Source: a virus | Lineage: Duplodnaviria > Heunggongvirae > Uroviricota > Caudoviricetes | IMG/VR virus record: IMGVR_UViG_2579778631_000016 | Length of the DNA stretch: 9,750 bases | Reading direction: 5' to 3' (one strand) | Shown here: positions 3,396 through 9,750 of the stretch, piece after piece | Layout: each line of letters begins with the position of its first letter | How positions within the stretch are numbered: the stretch's first letter is position 1 | Translations under genes and position numbers: made by a program | The notes under the pieces: model-generated | Databases searched by the model: none | The model's input: the letters and a program-made list of their open reading frames with translations, nothing else | What the model was told of the DNA's origin: nothing

Positions 3396-3519
3396 ATCTG
3401 CCTGCAAAGATGTCGAACAAAAATTAACCATAACCATCATCTTTTTTGCATCAAAACAATTAAAAACAATAAATTACGCTCATGATGATGATGACGATAA
3501 AATCACAAAAATGCGCTTT

Positions 3520-3570
3520 TTTCCGCGCCTCCCGCCCCGTGTTCAGGCCCACCCCGCCAGGAGGACCCGT
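3520..3570 (-). other. degenerate cos-like relic, copy C
   Basis: The minus strand reads acgggtcctcctggcggggtgggcctgaacacggggcgggaggcgcgg: a cosQ-like ACGGGTCCT followed by a decayed version of ttacgGGGCGGCGACCTcgcgg. Confidence 0.4.
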
Positions 3571-3592
3571 AAAAAAGCCGGATTGCTCCGGC
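3571..3592 (-). terminator. rho-independent terminator after the SSB gene
   Basis: Hairpin gccgga-ttgc-tccggc with an adjacent 6-nt U tract on the minus strand (A tract 3571-3576 on +). It is nearly identical to the terminator at 1130-1152. Confidence 0.55.
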
Positions 3593-3608: not shown

Positions 3609-4031
3609 TTAAAACGGTATGTTATCCCCGTACGGATCATCATTCCCCGCCTGTTGTTTTGCCCTGTTCAGCGCGTCAGTAGCCTGCCCCTGTTGACCTT
3701 TTTTGCTGCCCGGTCGCGCCGTTCTGGCACTGATTACACTGTCTGCGATAACCTGCCAGCCCTGCCGCGTTTCGCCGTTCTGGCCTGTCCACTGGCTCAC
3801 CTGCATATTACCCGCCACGCTCAGGAGTTCGCCTTTGTGGTGTTTTGCCAGTGCGTCGGCCTGTCTGCCAAACGCCAGGACAGATAACCACATCGTCGCC
3901 GTTCCGTCATCTGCCTGGCTGCATGGCAGGGGAACCGCCATACTCGCCATCGCCATTTGTGTCCCTTTGCTGGTGGTCTTTAACTGCGGGTCAGCCACCA
4001 GCCGCCCGCAAGCCGCTATCTGTGCTGTCAT
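3609..4031 (-). CDS. ssb: single-stranded DNA-binding protein (SSB), 140 aa
   Basis: OB-fold-like core (WLSVLAFGRQADALAKHHKGELLSVAGNMQVSQWTGQNGETRQGWQVIA) and an acidic C-terminal tail ending ...DDPYGDNIPF, as in E. coli SSB (...DFDDDIPF). Start overlaps the upstream stop (ATGA). Confidence 0.8.
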   Translation of the reverse strand: MTAQIAACGRLVADPQLKTTSKGTQMAMASMAVPLPCSQADDGTATMWLSVLAFGRQADALAKHHKGELLSVAGNMQVSQWTGQNGETRQGWQVIADSVISARTARPGSKKGQQGQATDALNRAKQQAGNDDPYGDNIPF

Positions 4032-4285
4032 GCTGTCTGCTCTCCGGTTTTAACGTTGATGGTTGTCACCTGTTCCGCTTCGGCAATCTCCCGTTCTGTC
4101 AGCGTGGCAAAGTTTGCTGCCGCCGTGGTCATGAATGCGCTTATCAGGTCGGGATGTGCTTTCGCGTATCCTTCCCCCGTGTTGCGGTCGATGATTTTTA
4201 TCGCCACTCTCAGCCAGTGCTCTGTAAGGTCAATGGCGCGGTTATGCTGCTTCTTCTGATTATTAAGTTTTCCTGATGTGCGCAT
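4028..4285 (-). CDS. hypothetical protein, 85 aa, first gene after the origin
   Basis: ATG at 4283-4285 with a GAGGGGG Shine-Dalgarno (spacer slightly long); translationally coupled to ssb. No family recognised. Confidence 0.5.
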   Translation of the reverse strand: MRTSGKLNNQKKQHNRAIDLTEHWLRVAIKIIDRNTGEGYAKAHPDLISAFMTTAAANFATLTEREIAEAEQVTTINVKTGEQTA

Positions 4286-4332
4286 TTTTATTTTTACCCC
4301 CTCGTTTAAAAAGTTTTGAGTTGTGCCTCCCC

Positions 4333-4560
4333 TTGTCTACCTTATCTACCTTACTGGCTCTCATGCCAGTAATGGCGCGGCTTTCAGCGGGGTAGAGTGC
4401 TTTTATCCACTATCTACCCCGTATCTACCTCCCTGTCTGATTCAGGTAAAATCAGGTAGAGAGGGTAGATAGTAGGTAGACAGTGAAAAAAGGCTGTCTA
4501 CCTAAGTTAATATACTGAATTGAATGTATTTTTCTTTACTCAGGTAGACAGGGTAGACAG
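4333..4560. repeat. iteron array (about 11 copies of GGTAGA(CAG) / (CTG)TCTACC) with an AT-rich spacer; putative replication origin
   Basis: GGTAGA at 4391, 4455, 4464, 4475, 4543, 4552 and TCTACC at 4336, 4345, 4413, 4424, 4497; the full 9-mer GGTAGACAG occurs three times. An AT-rich stretch at 4500-4540 could be an unwinding element. Lies immediately downstream of the primase/helicase gene, as in SaPI/PICI origins and P4 ori/crr. Confidence 0.7.
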
Positions 4561-4573
4561 CCATTGCAAAAAA

Positions 4574-6322
4574 TTATAAAAACGCGTCGCAATCGTCTGT
4601 TGTTATTGCGTTAGTCTGCGTTACTCCCTTAACTTTCCGCGTAATATATTCATGTCCGTAAACTTTCGCGGCTGGCTTCATAGCCTTGCCAAAGTCATTT
4701 ACGTTTAGCGGTTTGCTCCTGCCTGCGTATGCCATAAACGCCAGATAGACGCGGTAAAGGCTGTTCCTGGTCGTGTACTTCACTGAATCGCCACCGCCCC
4801 CCATCATCAGGCCGCGCGCTTCCTCCAGAAAATTCAGGAACTGGCAAAACTCAATAACCGGATCCGTTTGCTGCTTTATCGCCAGTGCTTCATCACCGTC
4901 ACGCTGTTCAATGAGTAAAGCCCGTGCCTTTTCAGGGGCGGAAAAGTTCGCCAGTAATCGGCGGATAATCACAGGGATTTCAGCCGCAATCTTTTCCGGT
5001 AGCTCCCTGTCTTTGTCGGCCTCACTGACGATATTGTCGAAACGGAAAATCACGCGACGACGTGCCACACCTCCGGCCCGTTCGGTGAATATCATCGGGT
5101 TGTTGTTGGTCGCCAGCACCACCGCCCTGATTACCGCCGTGAAACGCTTTTCATATTTCGGGTTAACTTCCACGGGGTCGCCGCCTGTGATTTTCTTGAT
5201 GCCCGTTCCTTCGCCTGTATATTTCGGCTGGTCAGCCAGGACGATAAGACGACTCCCGACAACCTGCGCACGTCCACCAGCATCATCAAGCGATGTCATT
5301 TCAGCGCTTACCGTGTTCTGTTTCCCTGCCAGAAGGCTGGCTATGTGTGTGAATGTACTTTTACCGCTCCCGCCGTCTCCGGTGGCCTCAATAAACATCT
5401 GCCAGTCGTACCGGTTCGCCATAATCATGTACAGCGCGGCACATATACGCATCATCTTGCTCGGGTCTTTTCCGGCTGCGTGCTCAAGCCATTTATGAAA
5501 GTTTGGCGCGTTATCGCGGATGTTCTCCCCGGGTGCTGGTGGCGTGTACTCAATGCCGTTGTGCGTGGTGATCCAGTTCTCCGGCGTGTGCGGGGAAAAT
5601 TCCCCCGTTTTCAGGTCAAGCGCACCATTGGCGAACGGCAGCAAATCGCCGGACGGCTCGCCCATTGGTTCGGCAATAACTTTTAACGCTTCCACGGCGT
5701 TATTGATTACGCGCTTGCTGAAAGTGGCCCTGTGCTCTGAATAGATCGCCACCATTTCGCGGCTCAGCTCCATTGTGCTGACCGGACACCATACCCCGCC
5801 GCGCCATACGTGAACGATTTCACTTTCAGGATGCACACAAACGCCATCAAAGCGCTCGGCAAGCAGCTGCGCGCGCTCACTGTCTGCCATTTGTGCCAGT
5901 TGCGTATTTTTCTGCTCCGGCATGGTAAGCCCTGCGGCAATATTTTCACGCTCAGCATTCAGATAGCGCCGCCAGTTTTCACACTTCTGGGCGTGCATTC
6001 CTTCGGGGTAAAAATTTGCGTCCTGAATATCTGCCGCCGCCAGCTTCTGACCAATCTTTTTGGTCTCCACCAAATCCAGTTCTCCGGCCTGGTACAGCCT
6101 TACGCGTTTTTTTCCATCAGGAACAATTTGCAGTGCATCAAGTTCGGCAAGCTGATTTGGCCCAAGCCACACAGGAGGCACATTATCGCCGGATGCGGGG
6201 CCGTCCTGCTCCTGCCACTGTTTTGCATGTGCCCACGCATCACTACCCGCGAAAATAATCACCTCTGTGTCTTTGTGTTTTATTCCGCGTGGCTGTTTTT
6301 TTACGTTCGGTGCCAGTTTCAT
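4574..6322 (-). CDS. P4-family primase / SF3 helicase replication initiator, 582 aa
   Basis: Walker A motif GDGGSGKST, a downstream LIVLADQP Walker B-like segment and a C-terminal region typical of phage/plasmid primase P4-family (D5_N-like) proteins. Start overlaps the stop of the upstream small ORF (ATGA). Confidence 0.9.
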   Translation of the reverse strand: MKLAPNVKKQPRGIKHKDTEVIIFAGSDAWAHAKQWQEQDGPASGDNVPPVWLGPNQLAELDALQIVPDGKKRVRLYQAGELDLVETKKIGQKLAAADIQDANFYPEGMHAQKCENWRRYLNAERENIAAGLTMPEQKNTQLAQMADSERAQLLAERFDGVCVHPESEIVHVWRGGVWCPVSTMELSREMVAIYSEHRATFSKRVINNAVEALKVIAEPMGEPSGDLLPFANGALDLKTGEFSPHTPENWITTHNGIEYTPPAPGENIRDNAPNFHKWLEHAAGKDPSKMMRICAALYMIMANRYDWQMFIEATGDGGSGKSTFTHIASLLAGKQNTVSAEMTSLDDAGGRAQVVGSRLIVLADQPKYTGEGTGIKKITGGDPVEVNPKYEKRFTAVIRAVVLATNNNPMIFTERAGGVARRRVIFRFDNIVSEADKDRELPEKIAAEIPVIIRRLLANFSAPEKARALLIEQRDGDEALAIKQQTDPVIEFCQFLNFLEEARGLMMGGGGDSVKYTTRNSLYRVYLAFMAYAGRSKPLNVNDFGKAMKPAAKVYGHEYITRKVKGVTQTNAITTDDCDAFL

Positions 6323-6618
6323 TTTTTACCCCTGAATACGTTAAGCATCTTTTTTATTTCCTGAATATTGGCGCGTGCTTTCTCCCTGCTGGTTGGAACG
6401 TTACGCGGTACAGCCTGCACCAGAGAAAAATCACGGTCGAACTGATAAACAGGCATCACGCAATCATATTCGTAGCCTTCACGACGGTAGGTTACGCGCC
6501 GTTCCTCCACGCCCTTAATCATTACCGTGCCGCCGTACTGGTCGCGGTAAATATCACCGCGCATGAATTTAGTGCGAGTTTTGCCACTGGCAGTTAAGCC
6601 AGAATATTTAAGTTTCAT
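6319..6618 (-). CDS. hypothetical protein, 99 aa
   Basis: Translationally coupled to the primase gene; family not recognised. Confidence 0.6.
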   Translation of the reverse strand: MKLKYSGLTASGKTRTKFMRGDIYRDQYGGTVMIKGVEERRVTYRREGYEYDCVMPVYQFDRDFSLVQAVPRNVPTSREKARANIQEIKKMLNVFRGKK

Positions 6619-6623
6619 TATTT

Positions 6624-6851
6624 TTATTCTCCGGTATGGGGCGAGTTATTATTCTCGTGAATTGCCATCACTGTATTTAATTCATTAATAACAGGCGTTA
6701 ATAGCGTACGCACGGCAGAAAACATCATTGAATCAGATTCATCGCCACTTTCCGGCACATCAATTAACTTAAGTAGTAATGCGTCCATTTCCTTTGCGCG
6801 GATTAATGCGTTTTCAGAATGAACAAGAACATCAAAGGGTATTTTATGCAT
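6624..6851 (-). CDS. hypothetical protein, 75 aa
   Basis: ATG at 6849-6851 overlaps the stop of the upstream 67-aa ORF (ATGCATAA); acidic, no family recognised. Confidence 0.55.
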   Translation of the reverse strand: MHKIPFDVLVHSENALIRAKEMDALLLKLIDVPESGDESDSMMFSAVRTLLTPVINELNTVMAIHENNNSPHTGE

Positions 6852-7047
6852 GACTCACCCCCTGGCGAATACGGGCAGCGAATACCATCACGCAGCCATC
6901 AGGAGATTGCTGACGCGCTTCCTGTTCGCTGGTGGCCTCAATGGTAATCACGCGCGGTTGTGCCGTGCTCAGGGCGATAAAACGCCAGATGTATTTATTC
7001 AGGTTGTGCGAGTCCCGCCCTTTCGGGTGTGTGGTATGATTTAACAT
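6844..7047 (-). CDS. hypothetical protein, 67 aa, first gene of leftward replication operon
   Basis: Internal ATG at 7045-7047 of the long 6844..7791(-) ORF, preceded by GAGGTAG at good spacing. The remainder of the 315-aa ORF is judged spurious. Confidence 0.5.
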   Translation of the reverse strand: MLNHTTHPKGRDSHNLNKYIWRFIALSTAQPRVITIEATSEQEARQQSPDGCVMVFAARIRQGVSHA

Positions 7048-7141
7048 AGCTACCTCGATACTCTTTCTATCGTTGGTGGTTAGAAGCCCGTTGGTGTTGG
7101 TAGCACCTGCGGGCTTTGTCTTTTCATCGATTACCTCAACA

Positions 7142-7225
7142 AAGGTGTCAGCCACTATACTAGTAACAGGTGTCAGCCACGTCAATAGTGTTTTTCCATT
7201 TTCTTGTGTGTATACTGTCAGCCAC
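7142..7225 (+). promoter_or_regulatory. three direct repeats of TGTCAGCCAC in the divergent promoter region (putative operator)
   Basis: aaaggtgtcagccac (7142-7155), acaggtgtcagccac (7166-7180) and tactgtcagccac (7213-7225). TATACT hexamers at 7156-7161 and 7211-7216 abut the repeats. Located just upstream of the RHH gene start at 7247. Confidence 0.5.
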
Positions 7226-7246
7226 CTAATAACAAGGAAATCAGAT

Positions 7247-7426
7247 ATGGCAACGAAAGCAGTTAATGGAAAATCCAAAAAACTTGAGGCACGAGTCCCC
7301 CATGCAATAGCTGACGCTGTAGAAAATTTAAAGGAAGAAGGCGAAAGCACTGGGCAATTTATCGTTTCGGCACTTGAAGGCGAGATCAAACGCCGCCAGC
7401 GCCGCAAGGCCAAAGAACCAGAGTAA
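7247..7426 (+). CDS. ribbon-helix-helix (Arc/CopG-like) DNA-binding protein, 59 aa
   Basis: ATG at 7247 with an AAGGAAA Shine-Dalgarno. KKLEARVPHAIADAVENLKEEGESTGQFIVSALEGEI fits a beta-strand / helix / loop / helix RHH pattern, and the basic tail is RRQRRKAK. The long N-terminal extension in the ORF track was rejected. Confidence 0.65.
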   Translation: MATKAVNGKSKKLEARVPHAIADAVENLKEEGESTGQFIVSALEGEIKRRQRRKAKEPE

Positions 7427-7483
7427 TCACCATCAGCGCCGTGGTGTAAGGTATTACGGCGCATTGCTATGCAGGACAACACA

Positions 7484-7657
7484 ATGACCGATAAAGAATT
7501 GACCAAAACATTATCACCGGCACGGAAAAGACGGCGCAGAAAGATAGAGCATGAATCAGAAAGATTCGCGCCATGTGCTTTTGCCCTTGAGCAATTCCTT
7601 AAAGAGTACAGGGAAAAGCGCTCATTGCAGGTATGGCAACGAACTGAACCAGACTGA
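7484..7657 (+). CDS. hypothetical small basic protein, about 57 aa
   Basis: Second ATG (7484) has an AGGA Shine-Dalgarno whereas the first (7469) does not. Contains ARKRRRRK. Followed by a terminator. Start is uncertain. Confidence 0.4.
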   Translation: MTDKELTKTLSPARKRRRRKIEHESERFAPCAFALEQFLKEYREKRSLQVWQRTEPD

Positions 7658-7752
7658 TTGCATTGCCCACCAGCCTGATAGCGGCTATCATCCCCGTGCT
7701 TATGTTTGGGATCATATACACATAAGGCGCAGCGGGTTAATTGTTCAGAAAG

Positions 7753-7779
7753 GCGGCTCCATATCGGGGCCGCTTTTTT
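7753..7779 (+). terminator. rho-independent terminator
   Basis: gcggctcc-atatc-ggggccgc followed by TTTTTT (7774-7779); lies between the convergent RHH operon and alpA. Confidence 0.55.
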
Positions 7780-7805
7780 CGTGTTTGTCATATCTGTGAT
7801 ACCCG

Positions 7806-8012
7806 TTAAGCAGCCGTTCCGCGTGCTTCCTGTTCGCGTTCTTTCTGCCAGGCCAACACATCATCCTCATACCATCCGCGACGGCGTAAACCAACGCGAA
7901 AACCCTGCGGAAATTCTCCGGCGTTGATCATGCTTTGCAGCGTGCTGTCTGCCTTGATGTGGATAATTTTTTTTACTTCCTGGCGAAAGATAATTTTTCT
8001 GATTGCTTCCAT
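7806..8012 (-). CDS. alpA: AlpA-family phage transcriptional regulator / excisionase-like protein, 68 aa
   Basis: KADSTLQSMINAGEFPQGFRVGLRRRGWYEDDVLAWQ matches the AlpA-family HTH pattern (...TIYRLIxxGxFPKPxKLGxRxxxWxExEVxxW). AAGGTAA Shine-Dalgarno; sits beside a P4-type integrase as in CP4-57. Confidence 0.8.
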   Translation of the reverse strand: MEAIRKIIFRQEVKKIIHIKADSTLQSMINAGEFPQGFRVGLRRRGWYEDDVLAWQKEREQEARGTAA

Positions 8013-8508: not shown

Positions 8509-9750
8509 CTACACGGCTCGGATACCCCTTTTACCACTGGCGAGGGTTACGCCCGTCGCCGCAGCCTCGACAAATTCGCCCCACCAGCGCATCAGCACGA
8601 TGCGTTTTTCTATGTAGTTGCTCCGGTTGTATGCCCGTCTAACTTCGTTGGTGTCGACGTGGGCAAGTGCCGCCTCTATTACGTCCGGCTCGAATCCTTC
8701 CTCGTTCGCTGCTGTGCTGAATATGGCGCGTAATCCATGAGACACCAGCACGCCAGCGAATCCCATACGCCGCAATGCTGCGTTAGCTGTCTGGCTGTTC
8801 ATCGGCTGCTGTGGGTCTTTCAGACTTGGGAAAACGTAATTGCGGTGGTGGCTGATTGGTTTCATGGCCTCCAGCACCGCCATAGCCTGACCGGAAAGCG
8901 GGATAACGTGATCCCTGCGCATCTTCATGCGTCCGGCAGGTATCGTCCATTGCTTCGCGTCCAGGTTGATTTCATCCCACCGCGTTGATGACGCTTCGGC
9001 GGGACGGGTTACGGTCAGTAACTGCCATTCAATCAGTAATCTGGTCTGCCGTTCTGTTGCCGATACTGATAAAGCCTGCATAAGCTCCGGCAGCTGTTCG
9101 GGGCGGATTGTTGGCATATGTTTTTTTACAGGTGAGGGAAACGCCTTACGCACATTCATAGCCGGATTGGCATCAATCAGCCCACTGTTGGCGGCGTAAT
9201 CCATTACCTCATTAACGCGCTGTAAAACCCGCTTGAGTGTTTCCAGGTTGCCGCGCTCCTTGATGGGGGTAAGCACTTCAACGAACCTTCGGGCGGTGAG
9301 GGTATCTATTGGCGTGTTGCCGATGAACGGGAATACATATTTATCCAGCGAACGCCAGATGTCTTTAATCGTGTTGGGGGCCAGATTCTGGCTGATTTTC
9401 ACCTGGTACCATGCCGCCGCCACATTTTCGAACGTGTTCCCTTGTCTTCGGGCCTCTGTCTCTCTTTTTTGCCTCTCGTGGTCCTGCGGGTCAGTTCCGG
9501 CACTGATTAACGTCCTGTACTCGCTACGGCGTTTTCTGGCATCAGCCAGGGAAACATCTTCAAGCGATCCAAAACTCAGCAATATTCTTTTTTTGTCCGA
9601 TGGTCGGTAGTAGGAAAATCTCCAGAGTTTTGATCCAGACGGTTTGACCAGGAGAAAAAGCCCTCCGCCGTCCTGCAGGGTGTACTCCTTTTGCGCTGGT
9701 CTGGCTGCTTTGATCTGCACTGTGGTTAATGGGTGTGTTTTTCTCGCCAT
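8509..9750 (-). CDS. int: tyrosine integrase, P4 / CP4-57 IntA type, 413 aa
   Basis: N-terminus MARKTHPLTTVQIKAARP...GGGLFLLVKPSGSKLWRFSYYRP is typical of P4-like integrases. The C-terminal catalytic region has HGLRAIFST and AYNRSNYIEKR, the tyrosine motif. ATG sits at the window edge (9748-9750). Confidence 0.95.
   Translation of the reverse strand: MARKTHPLTTVQIKAARPAQKEYTLQDGGGLFLLVKPSGSKLWRFSYYRPSDKKRILLSFGSLEDVSLADARKRRSEYRTLISAGTDPQDHERQKRETEARRQGNTFENVAAAWYQVKISQNLAPNTIKDIWRSLDKYVFPFIGNTPIDTLTARRFVEVLTPIKERGNLETLKRVLQRVNEVMDYAANSGLIDANPAMNVRKAFPSPVKKHMPTIRPEQLPELMQALSVSATERQTRLLIEWQLLTVTRPAEASSTRWDEINLDAKQWTIPAGRMKMRRDHVIPLSGQAMAVLEAMKPISHHRNYVFPSLKDPQQPMNSQTANAALRRMGFAGVLVSHGLRAIFSTAANEEGFEPDVIEAALAHVDTNEVRRAYNRSNYIEKRIVLMRWWGEFVEAAATGVTLASGKRGIRAV

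Follow-up and report, generated by a model that had tools for sequence, protein, structure and literature searches.

The intergenic region at 4286-4573 of the 9,750-nt stretch of DNA analyzed here (the window) is very probably the vegetative replication origin of a cos-type phage-inducible chromosomal island (PICI) of the EcCICFT073 family. The region belongs to the minus strand, extends from the gene for a helicase and initiator protein to the next gene, and was delimited by the map of open reading frames and by its identity to the corresponding part of EcCICFT073. The functional evidence for this assignment comes from that 97%-identical relative. Because the region is a near-identical allele of an origin that has been published and tested, the origin reading is supported and also already known. 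The finding is thus correct, but it is in the literature.

The island and its repeats

The window is an Escherichia coli PICI of the EcCICFT073 type. Its genes lie on one strand in the order integrase, AlpA-like protein, DUF4222 protein, helicase, origin, single-strand DNA-binding protein (SSB), cos-like region, and capsid and decoration proteins. This is the gene context of a PICI, in which integrase, alpA, pri-rep and origin are followed by packaging and interference genes in a single direction. The series begins on the minus strand with a tyrosine integrase (8509-9750), an AlpA-like protein (7806-8012), a 315-aa ORF that ends in an Icd-like or "transcriptional repressor" domain (6844-7791) and a DUF4222 protein (6319-6618). 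These are followed by the 582-aa initiator/helicase Pri-Rep (4574-6322), which carries D5_N, DUF5906 P-loop and Pox_D5 domains. The first gene past the origin encodes an 85-aa protein of phrog_1231 (4028-4285), whose ribosome-binding site GAGGGGG lies at 4297-4303, and the SSB of the same replication module follows (3609-4031). A lambda-type major capsid protein (1932-2987) and its neighbor (1585-1920), the counterpart of the head decoration protein gene in the Nissle and CFT073 islands, are found farther along the same strand.

Islands with this origin are common. Of 5426 complete E. coli genomes, 508-565 contain the origin region, in every case on the chromosome, and the origin of the window is 99.7% identical to that of many E. 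coli genomes. The best match to the window as a whole in a complete E. coli genome covers at most 92% of it at 93.5% identity. The island is a mosaic, and the 99.7%-identical origin is also found where the packaging module is quite unlike that of the window, for example in the capsid-forming island of IAI39. Where the window has a single ORF (6844-7791), EcCICFT073, Nissle and IAI39 have a number of small genes along with Icd-like fragments, and judging from this comparison the module appears to have been replaced or fused in the window. Finally, the segment at 3406-3575, which is overlapped by a 40-mer of 82% AT (3437-3476), shares 87-91% identity with a region of Stx-converting phages that carries no annotation. 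It sits where EcCICFT073 has a cos site and is probably one of the cos sites of this island as well.

The proposed origin is filled by eleven exact copies of the hexamer GGTAGA, counted on both strands, all of which are located at 4336-4557. Together with their 3-nt tails, these copies span exactly 4333-4560. The number and extent of the repeats in the original prediction are therefore upheld, as is its statement that they are unrelated to cos, since GGTAGA is absent from the remainder of the window, including the cos-like region. The prediction had named a 9-mer as the repeat unit and had placed the copies in two orientation blocks, and both descriptions need minor correction. The 9-mer GGTAGACAG is exact in only 4 of the 11 copies, with one mismatch in another 4 and two mismatches in the other 3, and the conserved core is the hexamer. 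When the sequence is simply read, the consensus is RGGTAGAYAG, in which the common unit RGGTAGA is followed by a variable tail. The orientations are interleaved, in the order -,-,+,-,-,+,+,+,-,+,+ along the plus strand, and neighboring iterons of the same orientation are spaced 9 or 11 nt apart. Overall, the repeats fill a gap of 288 nt between the stop of the 582-aa gene at 4574 and the start of the next minus-strand ORF at 4285.

Iteron 1 (4336-4341, minus strand) reads TCTACC on the plus strand and is an exact hexamer retained in 12 of 12 related origins, and iteron 2 (4345-4350, minus) lies 9 nt from it. Iteron 3 (4391-4396, plus) stands 4 nt past an invariant box that is described below, and is followed by iterons 4 (4413-4418) and 5 (4424-4429), both on the minus strand and 11 nt apart. 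The plus-strand iterons 6 (4455-4460), 7 (4464-4469) and 8 (4475-4480) come next, the last of which forms the palindrome TAGGTAGACAG-N10-CTGTCTACCTA with iteron 9 (4497-4502, minus). Two further plus-strand copies, iterons 10 (4543-4548) and 11 (4552-4557), are 9 nt apart, and iteron 11 is the copy closest to the helicase gene. Iterons 2 through 7, 10 and 11 were placed by the hexamer scan together with a 12-way alignment of related origins, whereas iterons 8 and 9 were placed by a repeat scan together with the hexamer scan.

The AT-rich tract at 4503-4542, which has iteron 9 at its border, is 80% AT compared with 50% for the whole window. It is the presumed site of duplex unwinding, a role assigned by analogy to the model for SaPI and PICI origins, and its placement reflects calculated stability. 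The 40-mer at 4499-4538, which overlaps the tract, is the second least stable in the window. The AT-rich separator that had been predicted does exist, but it is off-center and does not divide the repeats into equal halves: iterons 1 to 9 lie on one side and iterons 10 and 11 on the other. Across it, iterons 10 and 11 (GGTAGA on the plus strand) face iteron 9 (TCTACC on the plus strand).

Some additional elements of the region are confined to close relatives. A hairpin-forming inverted repeat, TTACTGGC-N6-GCCAGTAA (4351-4372), was detected by the repeat scan and overlaps the start of the invariant box. It is lineage-specific and is lost from the more distant origin variants in the 12-way alignment. 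Similarly, a DnaA-box-like motif, TTATCCACT (4403-4411, plus strand), which matches at 8 of 9 positions and lies between the inverted iterons 3 and 4, is found only in the lineage of the window and EcCICFT073 among the 12 variants. It is the single DnaA-box match of this quality in the origin and is not kept among relatives, and the origin contains no match to the IHF consensus.

Several other signals were dismissed as products of the repeats. The only reading frames in the gap are of 20-49 aa and consist of repeat-derived sequence. An Rfam search of the window at E values up to 1 returned only a sub-threshold microRNA match, which was rejected as a product of the inverted repeats. A folding z-score of -5.6 likewise was not accepted as a sign of structured RNA, because it is a trivial result of inverted iterons.

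A tested relative and the conservation of the iterons

The EcCICFT073 island (AE014075, 1377749-1389210, with coordinates from the supplement of PMC6092414) provides the most informative comparison. Its origin has the same position, the same length (288 nt) and the same gene order and neighborhood as that of the window, and the two are approximately 97% identical. Nine of the 288 positions differ, none of them inside a hexamer, and thus all eleven hexamers, the AT-rich tract and the invariant box are shared. The whole EcCICFT073 island carries these 11 clustered copies of GGTAGA and one stray copy elsewhere. Its Pri protein is 91% identical overall to the protein of the window, and identity rises from 68% in residues 1-140 to 98% across the D5_N and helicase parts and 100% across residues 481-582. 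The two islands are unlike in other modules.

Experiments with this relative have been published (Fillol-Salom et al. 2018, ISME J, PMC6092414). A temperature-sensitive plasmid into which the EcCICFT073 pri-ori had been cloned gave colonies at 44 C, a derivative deleted for pri gave none, and colony numbers of a derivative deleted for ori were "significantly reduced" at this temperature. The origin reading of the original prediction is therefore supported by a close relative of the intergenic region whose pri-ori replicates. The arrangement in the window is also that of Gram-negative PICI origins, because the repeats begin at 4557, directly 3' of pri-rep (stop at 4574), and iterons are present on both sides of the AT-rich tract.

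Repeats located between two genes could instead be the operators of a regulator that controls the downstream operon, which comprises the 85-aa gene, the SSB gene and the packaging genes. Inverted repeats are typical of operators, and these immediately precede the next gene with its ribosome-binding site. However, a promoter and terminator scan of 4000-4800 detected no terminator in the gap and a single weak promoter-like site, which is on the non-coding strand. The region is for this reason neither an obvious promoter nor an obvious terminator. With no convincing sigma-70 promoter on the gene strand, with eleven sites spread over 220 nt plus an AT-rich gap, which is not operator-like, and with a neighboring protein that has an origin-binding domain by homology, an operator role for the repeats is extremely unlikely. 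Furthermore, the homologous region of EcCICFT073 is needed for plasmid replication in the experiments described above (PMC6092414).

Conservation of the repeats was assessed with 12 origin variants, namely the window, eight further E. coli islands whose origins are 70-81% identical to that of the window, and the islands of IAI39, Nissle and CFT073. Each of the 12 has 9-11 copies of GGTAGA at homologous positions, and the hexamer columns of these E. coli origins are 93% conserved compared with 75% elsewhere (Mann-Whitney p 1e-11). The pattern extends to a metagenomic relative whose protein is only 45% identical, in which 11 copies of GGTAGA follow directly past the stop codon. A second metagenomic relative, with a protein that is 48% identical and has a different wing sequence, carries six AGTGCC repeats instead. 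The initial protein search had returned only near-identical proteins from E. coli and Shigella.

These observations bear on whether the cluster might be a chance or neutral low-complexity feature without function, for which only the shortness of the repeat unit speaks. In dinucleotide-preserving shuffles of the window, GGTAGA occurred 1.93 times on average and at most 6 times, and 11 copies were reached in 0 of 200 shuffles. Moreover, the same positions are kept in origins that are otherwise approximately 70% identical, and the copies persist beside the 45%-identical protein. Shuffling and conservation together exclude chance as the source of the cluster.

The bases that follow the core offer a hint regarding recognition. 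The three bases after the hexamer differ by lineage, being CAG in that of the window and GGG in another (loci L008-L013). This split matches a change in the predicted binding domain (encoded at 4601-4870) from NVNDFGKA to NVA(E/D)FSKA, which may mark residues that contact the iterons. The covariation is only weak, because it reflects a single evolutionary split.

The initiator protein and other origin systems

The 582-aa protein has the parts expected of an initiator that opens its own origin. Residues 186-430 match PriRep5, the self-loading helicase of SaPI5 (7OLA, E 3e-15), and residues 486-574 match the origin-binding winged-helix domain of the P4 alpha protein (1KA8, E 1e-6). Furthermore, residues 141-571 are 41% identical to residues 326-756 of P4 alpha, which contain its helicase and origin-binding domain. 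The C-terminal winged-helix domain (residues 485-574, encoded at 4601-4870 on the minus strand and matching Pfam Pox_D5 in addition to PDB 1KA8) is thus predicted to recognize the iterons.

The N-terminal part is different. The gene next to the repeats had been described as a primase gene, and the repeats do lie directly 3' of it, but its 582-aa product contains no counterpart of the P4 alpha primase domain. The annotation "DNA primase" stems from TIGR01613, which covers the helicase part only. Residues 1-152 gave no match in Pfam or among PDB sequences, and a confident structural model gives residues 1-140 (5903-6322, minus strand) a Toprim-like fold without catalytic residues. The "DNA primase" annotation is unsupported because this module resembles Toprim only in fold, lacks the catalytic residues and belongs to no known family by sequence. 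From the model, the module is best described as a putative degenerate, non-catalytic Toprim-like adaptor. Because the protein has no recognizable primase active site, a host primase is probably needed for priming.

The N-terminal module is rare, with 78 cluster representatives among 1.84 billion proteins, and is always N-terminal. It has been fused to four ATPase bodies, namely D5_N/DUF5906, DUF927, AAA_25 and VapE. In comparisons of the window with loci L001-L013, identity in the module ranges from 39% to 98%, versus 91-99% in the D5_N and helicase parts. By this pattern, the module looks like a swappable specificity module.

We infer the following course of initiation from sequence features and homologies at every step. 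After induction, the 582-aa protein would use its C-terminal winged-helix domain to bind the eleven RGGTAGA sites, and protomers would then assemble face to face on both sides of 4503-4542. Such a facing assembly is possible because adjacent sites are spaced by roughly one helical turn (9-11 nt) and point in either direction. The superfamily-3 helicase body would next form a hexamer, open the 40-bp tract at 4503-4542 and load itself without a separate loader. The SSB of the island, encoded two genes downstream, would coat the unwound strands, and the host primase would probably carry out priming.

Some of these steps parallel well-characterized systems. SaPI origins contain six to twelve iterons of 5-6 nt downstream of rep, with at least two opposed on each side of an AT-rich tract, and the SaPI Rep helicase, a self-loading SF3-type enzyme, binds these penta- or hexanucleotides through a C-terminal winged-helix domain (Ubeda et al., summarized in PMC9371898). 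The window has eleven hexamers with opposed iterons across its AT-rich tract, and its protein appears by homology to have the same helicase core and C-terminal winged-helix domain. The differences are that the SaPI origins have no nucleotide similarity to the window and use a different iteron sequence, that the tract in the window is off-center, with nine iterons against two, unlike that of SaPIs, and that a genuine primase, as a separate protein or as a fused part, exists in SaPIs but is not recognizable in the protein of the window.

Phage P4 offers the closest protein and a more complicated origin. The cluster in the window occupies a position like that of crr in P4, just 3' of the alpha-type gene. 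The octamer TGTCTACC of the window agrees with the P4 type-1 repeat TGTTCACC at 6 of 8 positions, and pairs of repeats are 9 nt apart in both. Across the cluster the repeat reads (T/C)(G/A)TCTACC, and no copy exceeds these 6 of 8 matches to the P4 repeat. The N-terminal primase domain of P4 alpha, approximately 325 residues, is replaced here by the unrelated module of 140 residues. P4 also lacks the invariant box, its best match having 4 mismatches.

The most serious rival to the origin reading arises from this comparison, because P4 crr occupies exactly that position. The cluster could be an auxiliary cis-acting site of the crr kind, which would bind the initiator and stimulate replication while DNA synthesis began at another origin of the island. 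In favor of this, the protein is homologous to P4 alpha, the cluster is directly 3' of its gene, and crr likewise consists of some ten short sites of both orientations, including pairs at a spacing of 9 nt. P4, however, needs two clusters of type-1 repeats 4.5 kb apart (ori and crr), whereas the window and three islands have one each. No second GGTAGA cluster is present in the window or in the whole EcCICFT073, Nissle and IAI39 islands, where only one stray copy was found in each of two of the three. In addition, pri-ori of EcCICFT073 is by itself sufficient to maintain a plasmid (PMC6092414). A crr-like auxiliary role is therefore very unlikely, and the cluster is best regarded as the origin.

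Other origin types show weaker or no correspondence. The origins bound by SV40 large T antigen and papillomavirus E1 have short inverted initiator sites beside an AT-rich tract, where an SF3 helicase assembles and loads itself. Their likeness to the window is functional only, as there is no sequence relationship, the DNA-binding fold is another one and the hosts are eukaryotic. An iteron plasmid origin of the RepA or pi type, with direct iterons of 17-22 bp, DnaA boxes and a winged-helix Rep protein of the dimer/monomer kind, was rejected because the units here are 6-9 nt long and occur in both orientations. It was rejected also because the initiator is an SF3 helicase and the sole DnaA-like box is neither perfect nor conserved. 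A lambda-type origin, with iterons and an AT-rich tract inside the gene of the O initiator, was rejected because the region is intergenic and no O-like protein is encoded.

The invariant box

The only invariant stretch of the 12-way alignment outside the hexamers is a 20-nt box, CAGTAATGGCGCGGCTTTCA, at 4367-4386 on the plus strand. It is unchanged in all 12 E. coli origin variants, with the rest falling to approximately 70% identity. The box can be extended to about 22 bp, C-CAGTAATGRCGCGGSTTTCA-G, at 4366-4387 of the window. An exact 10-nt repeat, AATGGCGCGG, is located in the center of the box (4371-4380) and again at 4232-4241, inside the 85-aa gene, and may be due to chance.

Searches with CAGTAATGRCGCGGSTTTCA revealed that the box is not confined to these islands. 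The sequence occurs at 36 loci when one genome per species is considered, compared with about 4 expected by chance, and the matches listed include at least 120 viral and at least 120 metagenomic ones. Pooled across genomes, viral contigs and metagenomes, there are at least 265 instances in at least 67 distinct flanking contexts. Similarity around the pooled matches drops to background within two bases on each side; the interior of the box was fixed by the query, so these matches speak for its borders and not for conservation within it. Five of the genome matches were set aside as unrelated, since they lie within a flavoprotein coding sequence. Among the matches listed, the hosts include Firmicutes, Acidobacteriota and several classes of Proteobacteria, and the Bacteroidota among them carry the box without local iterons.

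The surroundings of the box frequently resemble an origin. In at least 19 of the at least 67 contexts, a hexamer particular to that context is present in five or more copies within 150 nt (p <= 0.01). At least seven families of initiators or helicases are encoded near the box, namely the P4-alpha type, lambda O, AAA_25, Prim-Pol with DUF3987, a Toprim-domain protein, VapE and DUF927, and in the VapE context the local repeats are not significant. In at least six families, different iterons follow one layout, in which one to three iterons precede the box, an inverted iteron comes about 4 nt after it, and a gap of 16-22 nt leads to one or two more iterons. A model of the P4-alpha-type helicase had no match among the genome loci with a box, and the box is therefore not bound to this type of helicase. 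Relative to the box, the AT-rich tract varies in both side and distance.

Phages provide a separate setting. In CUS-3-like and JEP4-like phages and in some Stx2a and P22-like phages, the box is inside the O gene, where it is flanked on either side by a set of about four CCGCACA iterons and lies approximately 80 nt from an AT-rich tract. In the O gene of CUS-3 (L104, 1400-1900; L290), the AT-rich tract comes after the second set of four iterons, the box is translated as ASNGAAFS, and the origin is unannotated in the phage records. A paper on the origin of Stx phages describes lambda-type iterons only.

Other occurrences are more varied. Some contexts have no iterons of any kind, and some copies are found 10-170 nt from the 3' ends of tRNA or tmRNA genes, where the ends of islands are expected. 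One metagenomic contig (L210, 5610-5892) has three boxes within 300 nt, among TGACAA repeats. A viral contig of 182 kb (L050, L070 and L095) has three dispersed boxes, each in a larger GTTACAA/TTGTAAC inverted repeat.

Attempts to match the box to something familiar gave negative results. No Rfam family overlaps it in the window or in 20 loci, and neither its sequence nor a description of it was found in the literature searched. A hairpin with a conserved stem at the box was only partly supported, because the 5' arm varies and is often unpaired. To our knowledge, the box does not fit sigma-54 or sigma-32 promoters, boxA, parS, dif, the ends of Mu or the nick sites of HUH enzymes. It is conceivable, though we would not call it probable, that the box of about 22 bp is a widely shared and undescribed origin element. 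Because it occurs irrespective of the initiator family, it may be bound by a conserved replication factor of the host or may serve as an intrinsic signal for loading or priming.

For the island itself, the result supplies the origin annotation of a very common E. coli satellite, of a type found in roughly one in ten complete E. coli genomes. The call is useful because RefSeq records leave the gap unannotated. The origin otherwise changes little, and the invariant box and the missing primase domain are leads worth following that may matter more. A protein routinely called "DNA primase" in PICIs has no recognizable active site, which raises the question of what primes the replication of these elements. 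If the box is functional, it would point to a common and unstudied step in the initiation of mobile-element replication.
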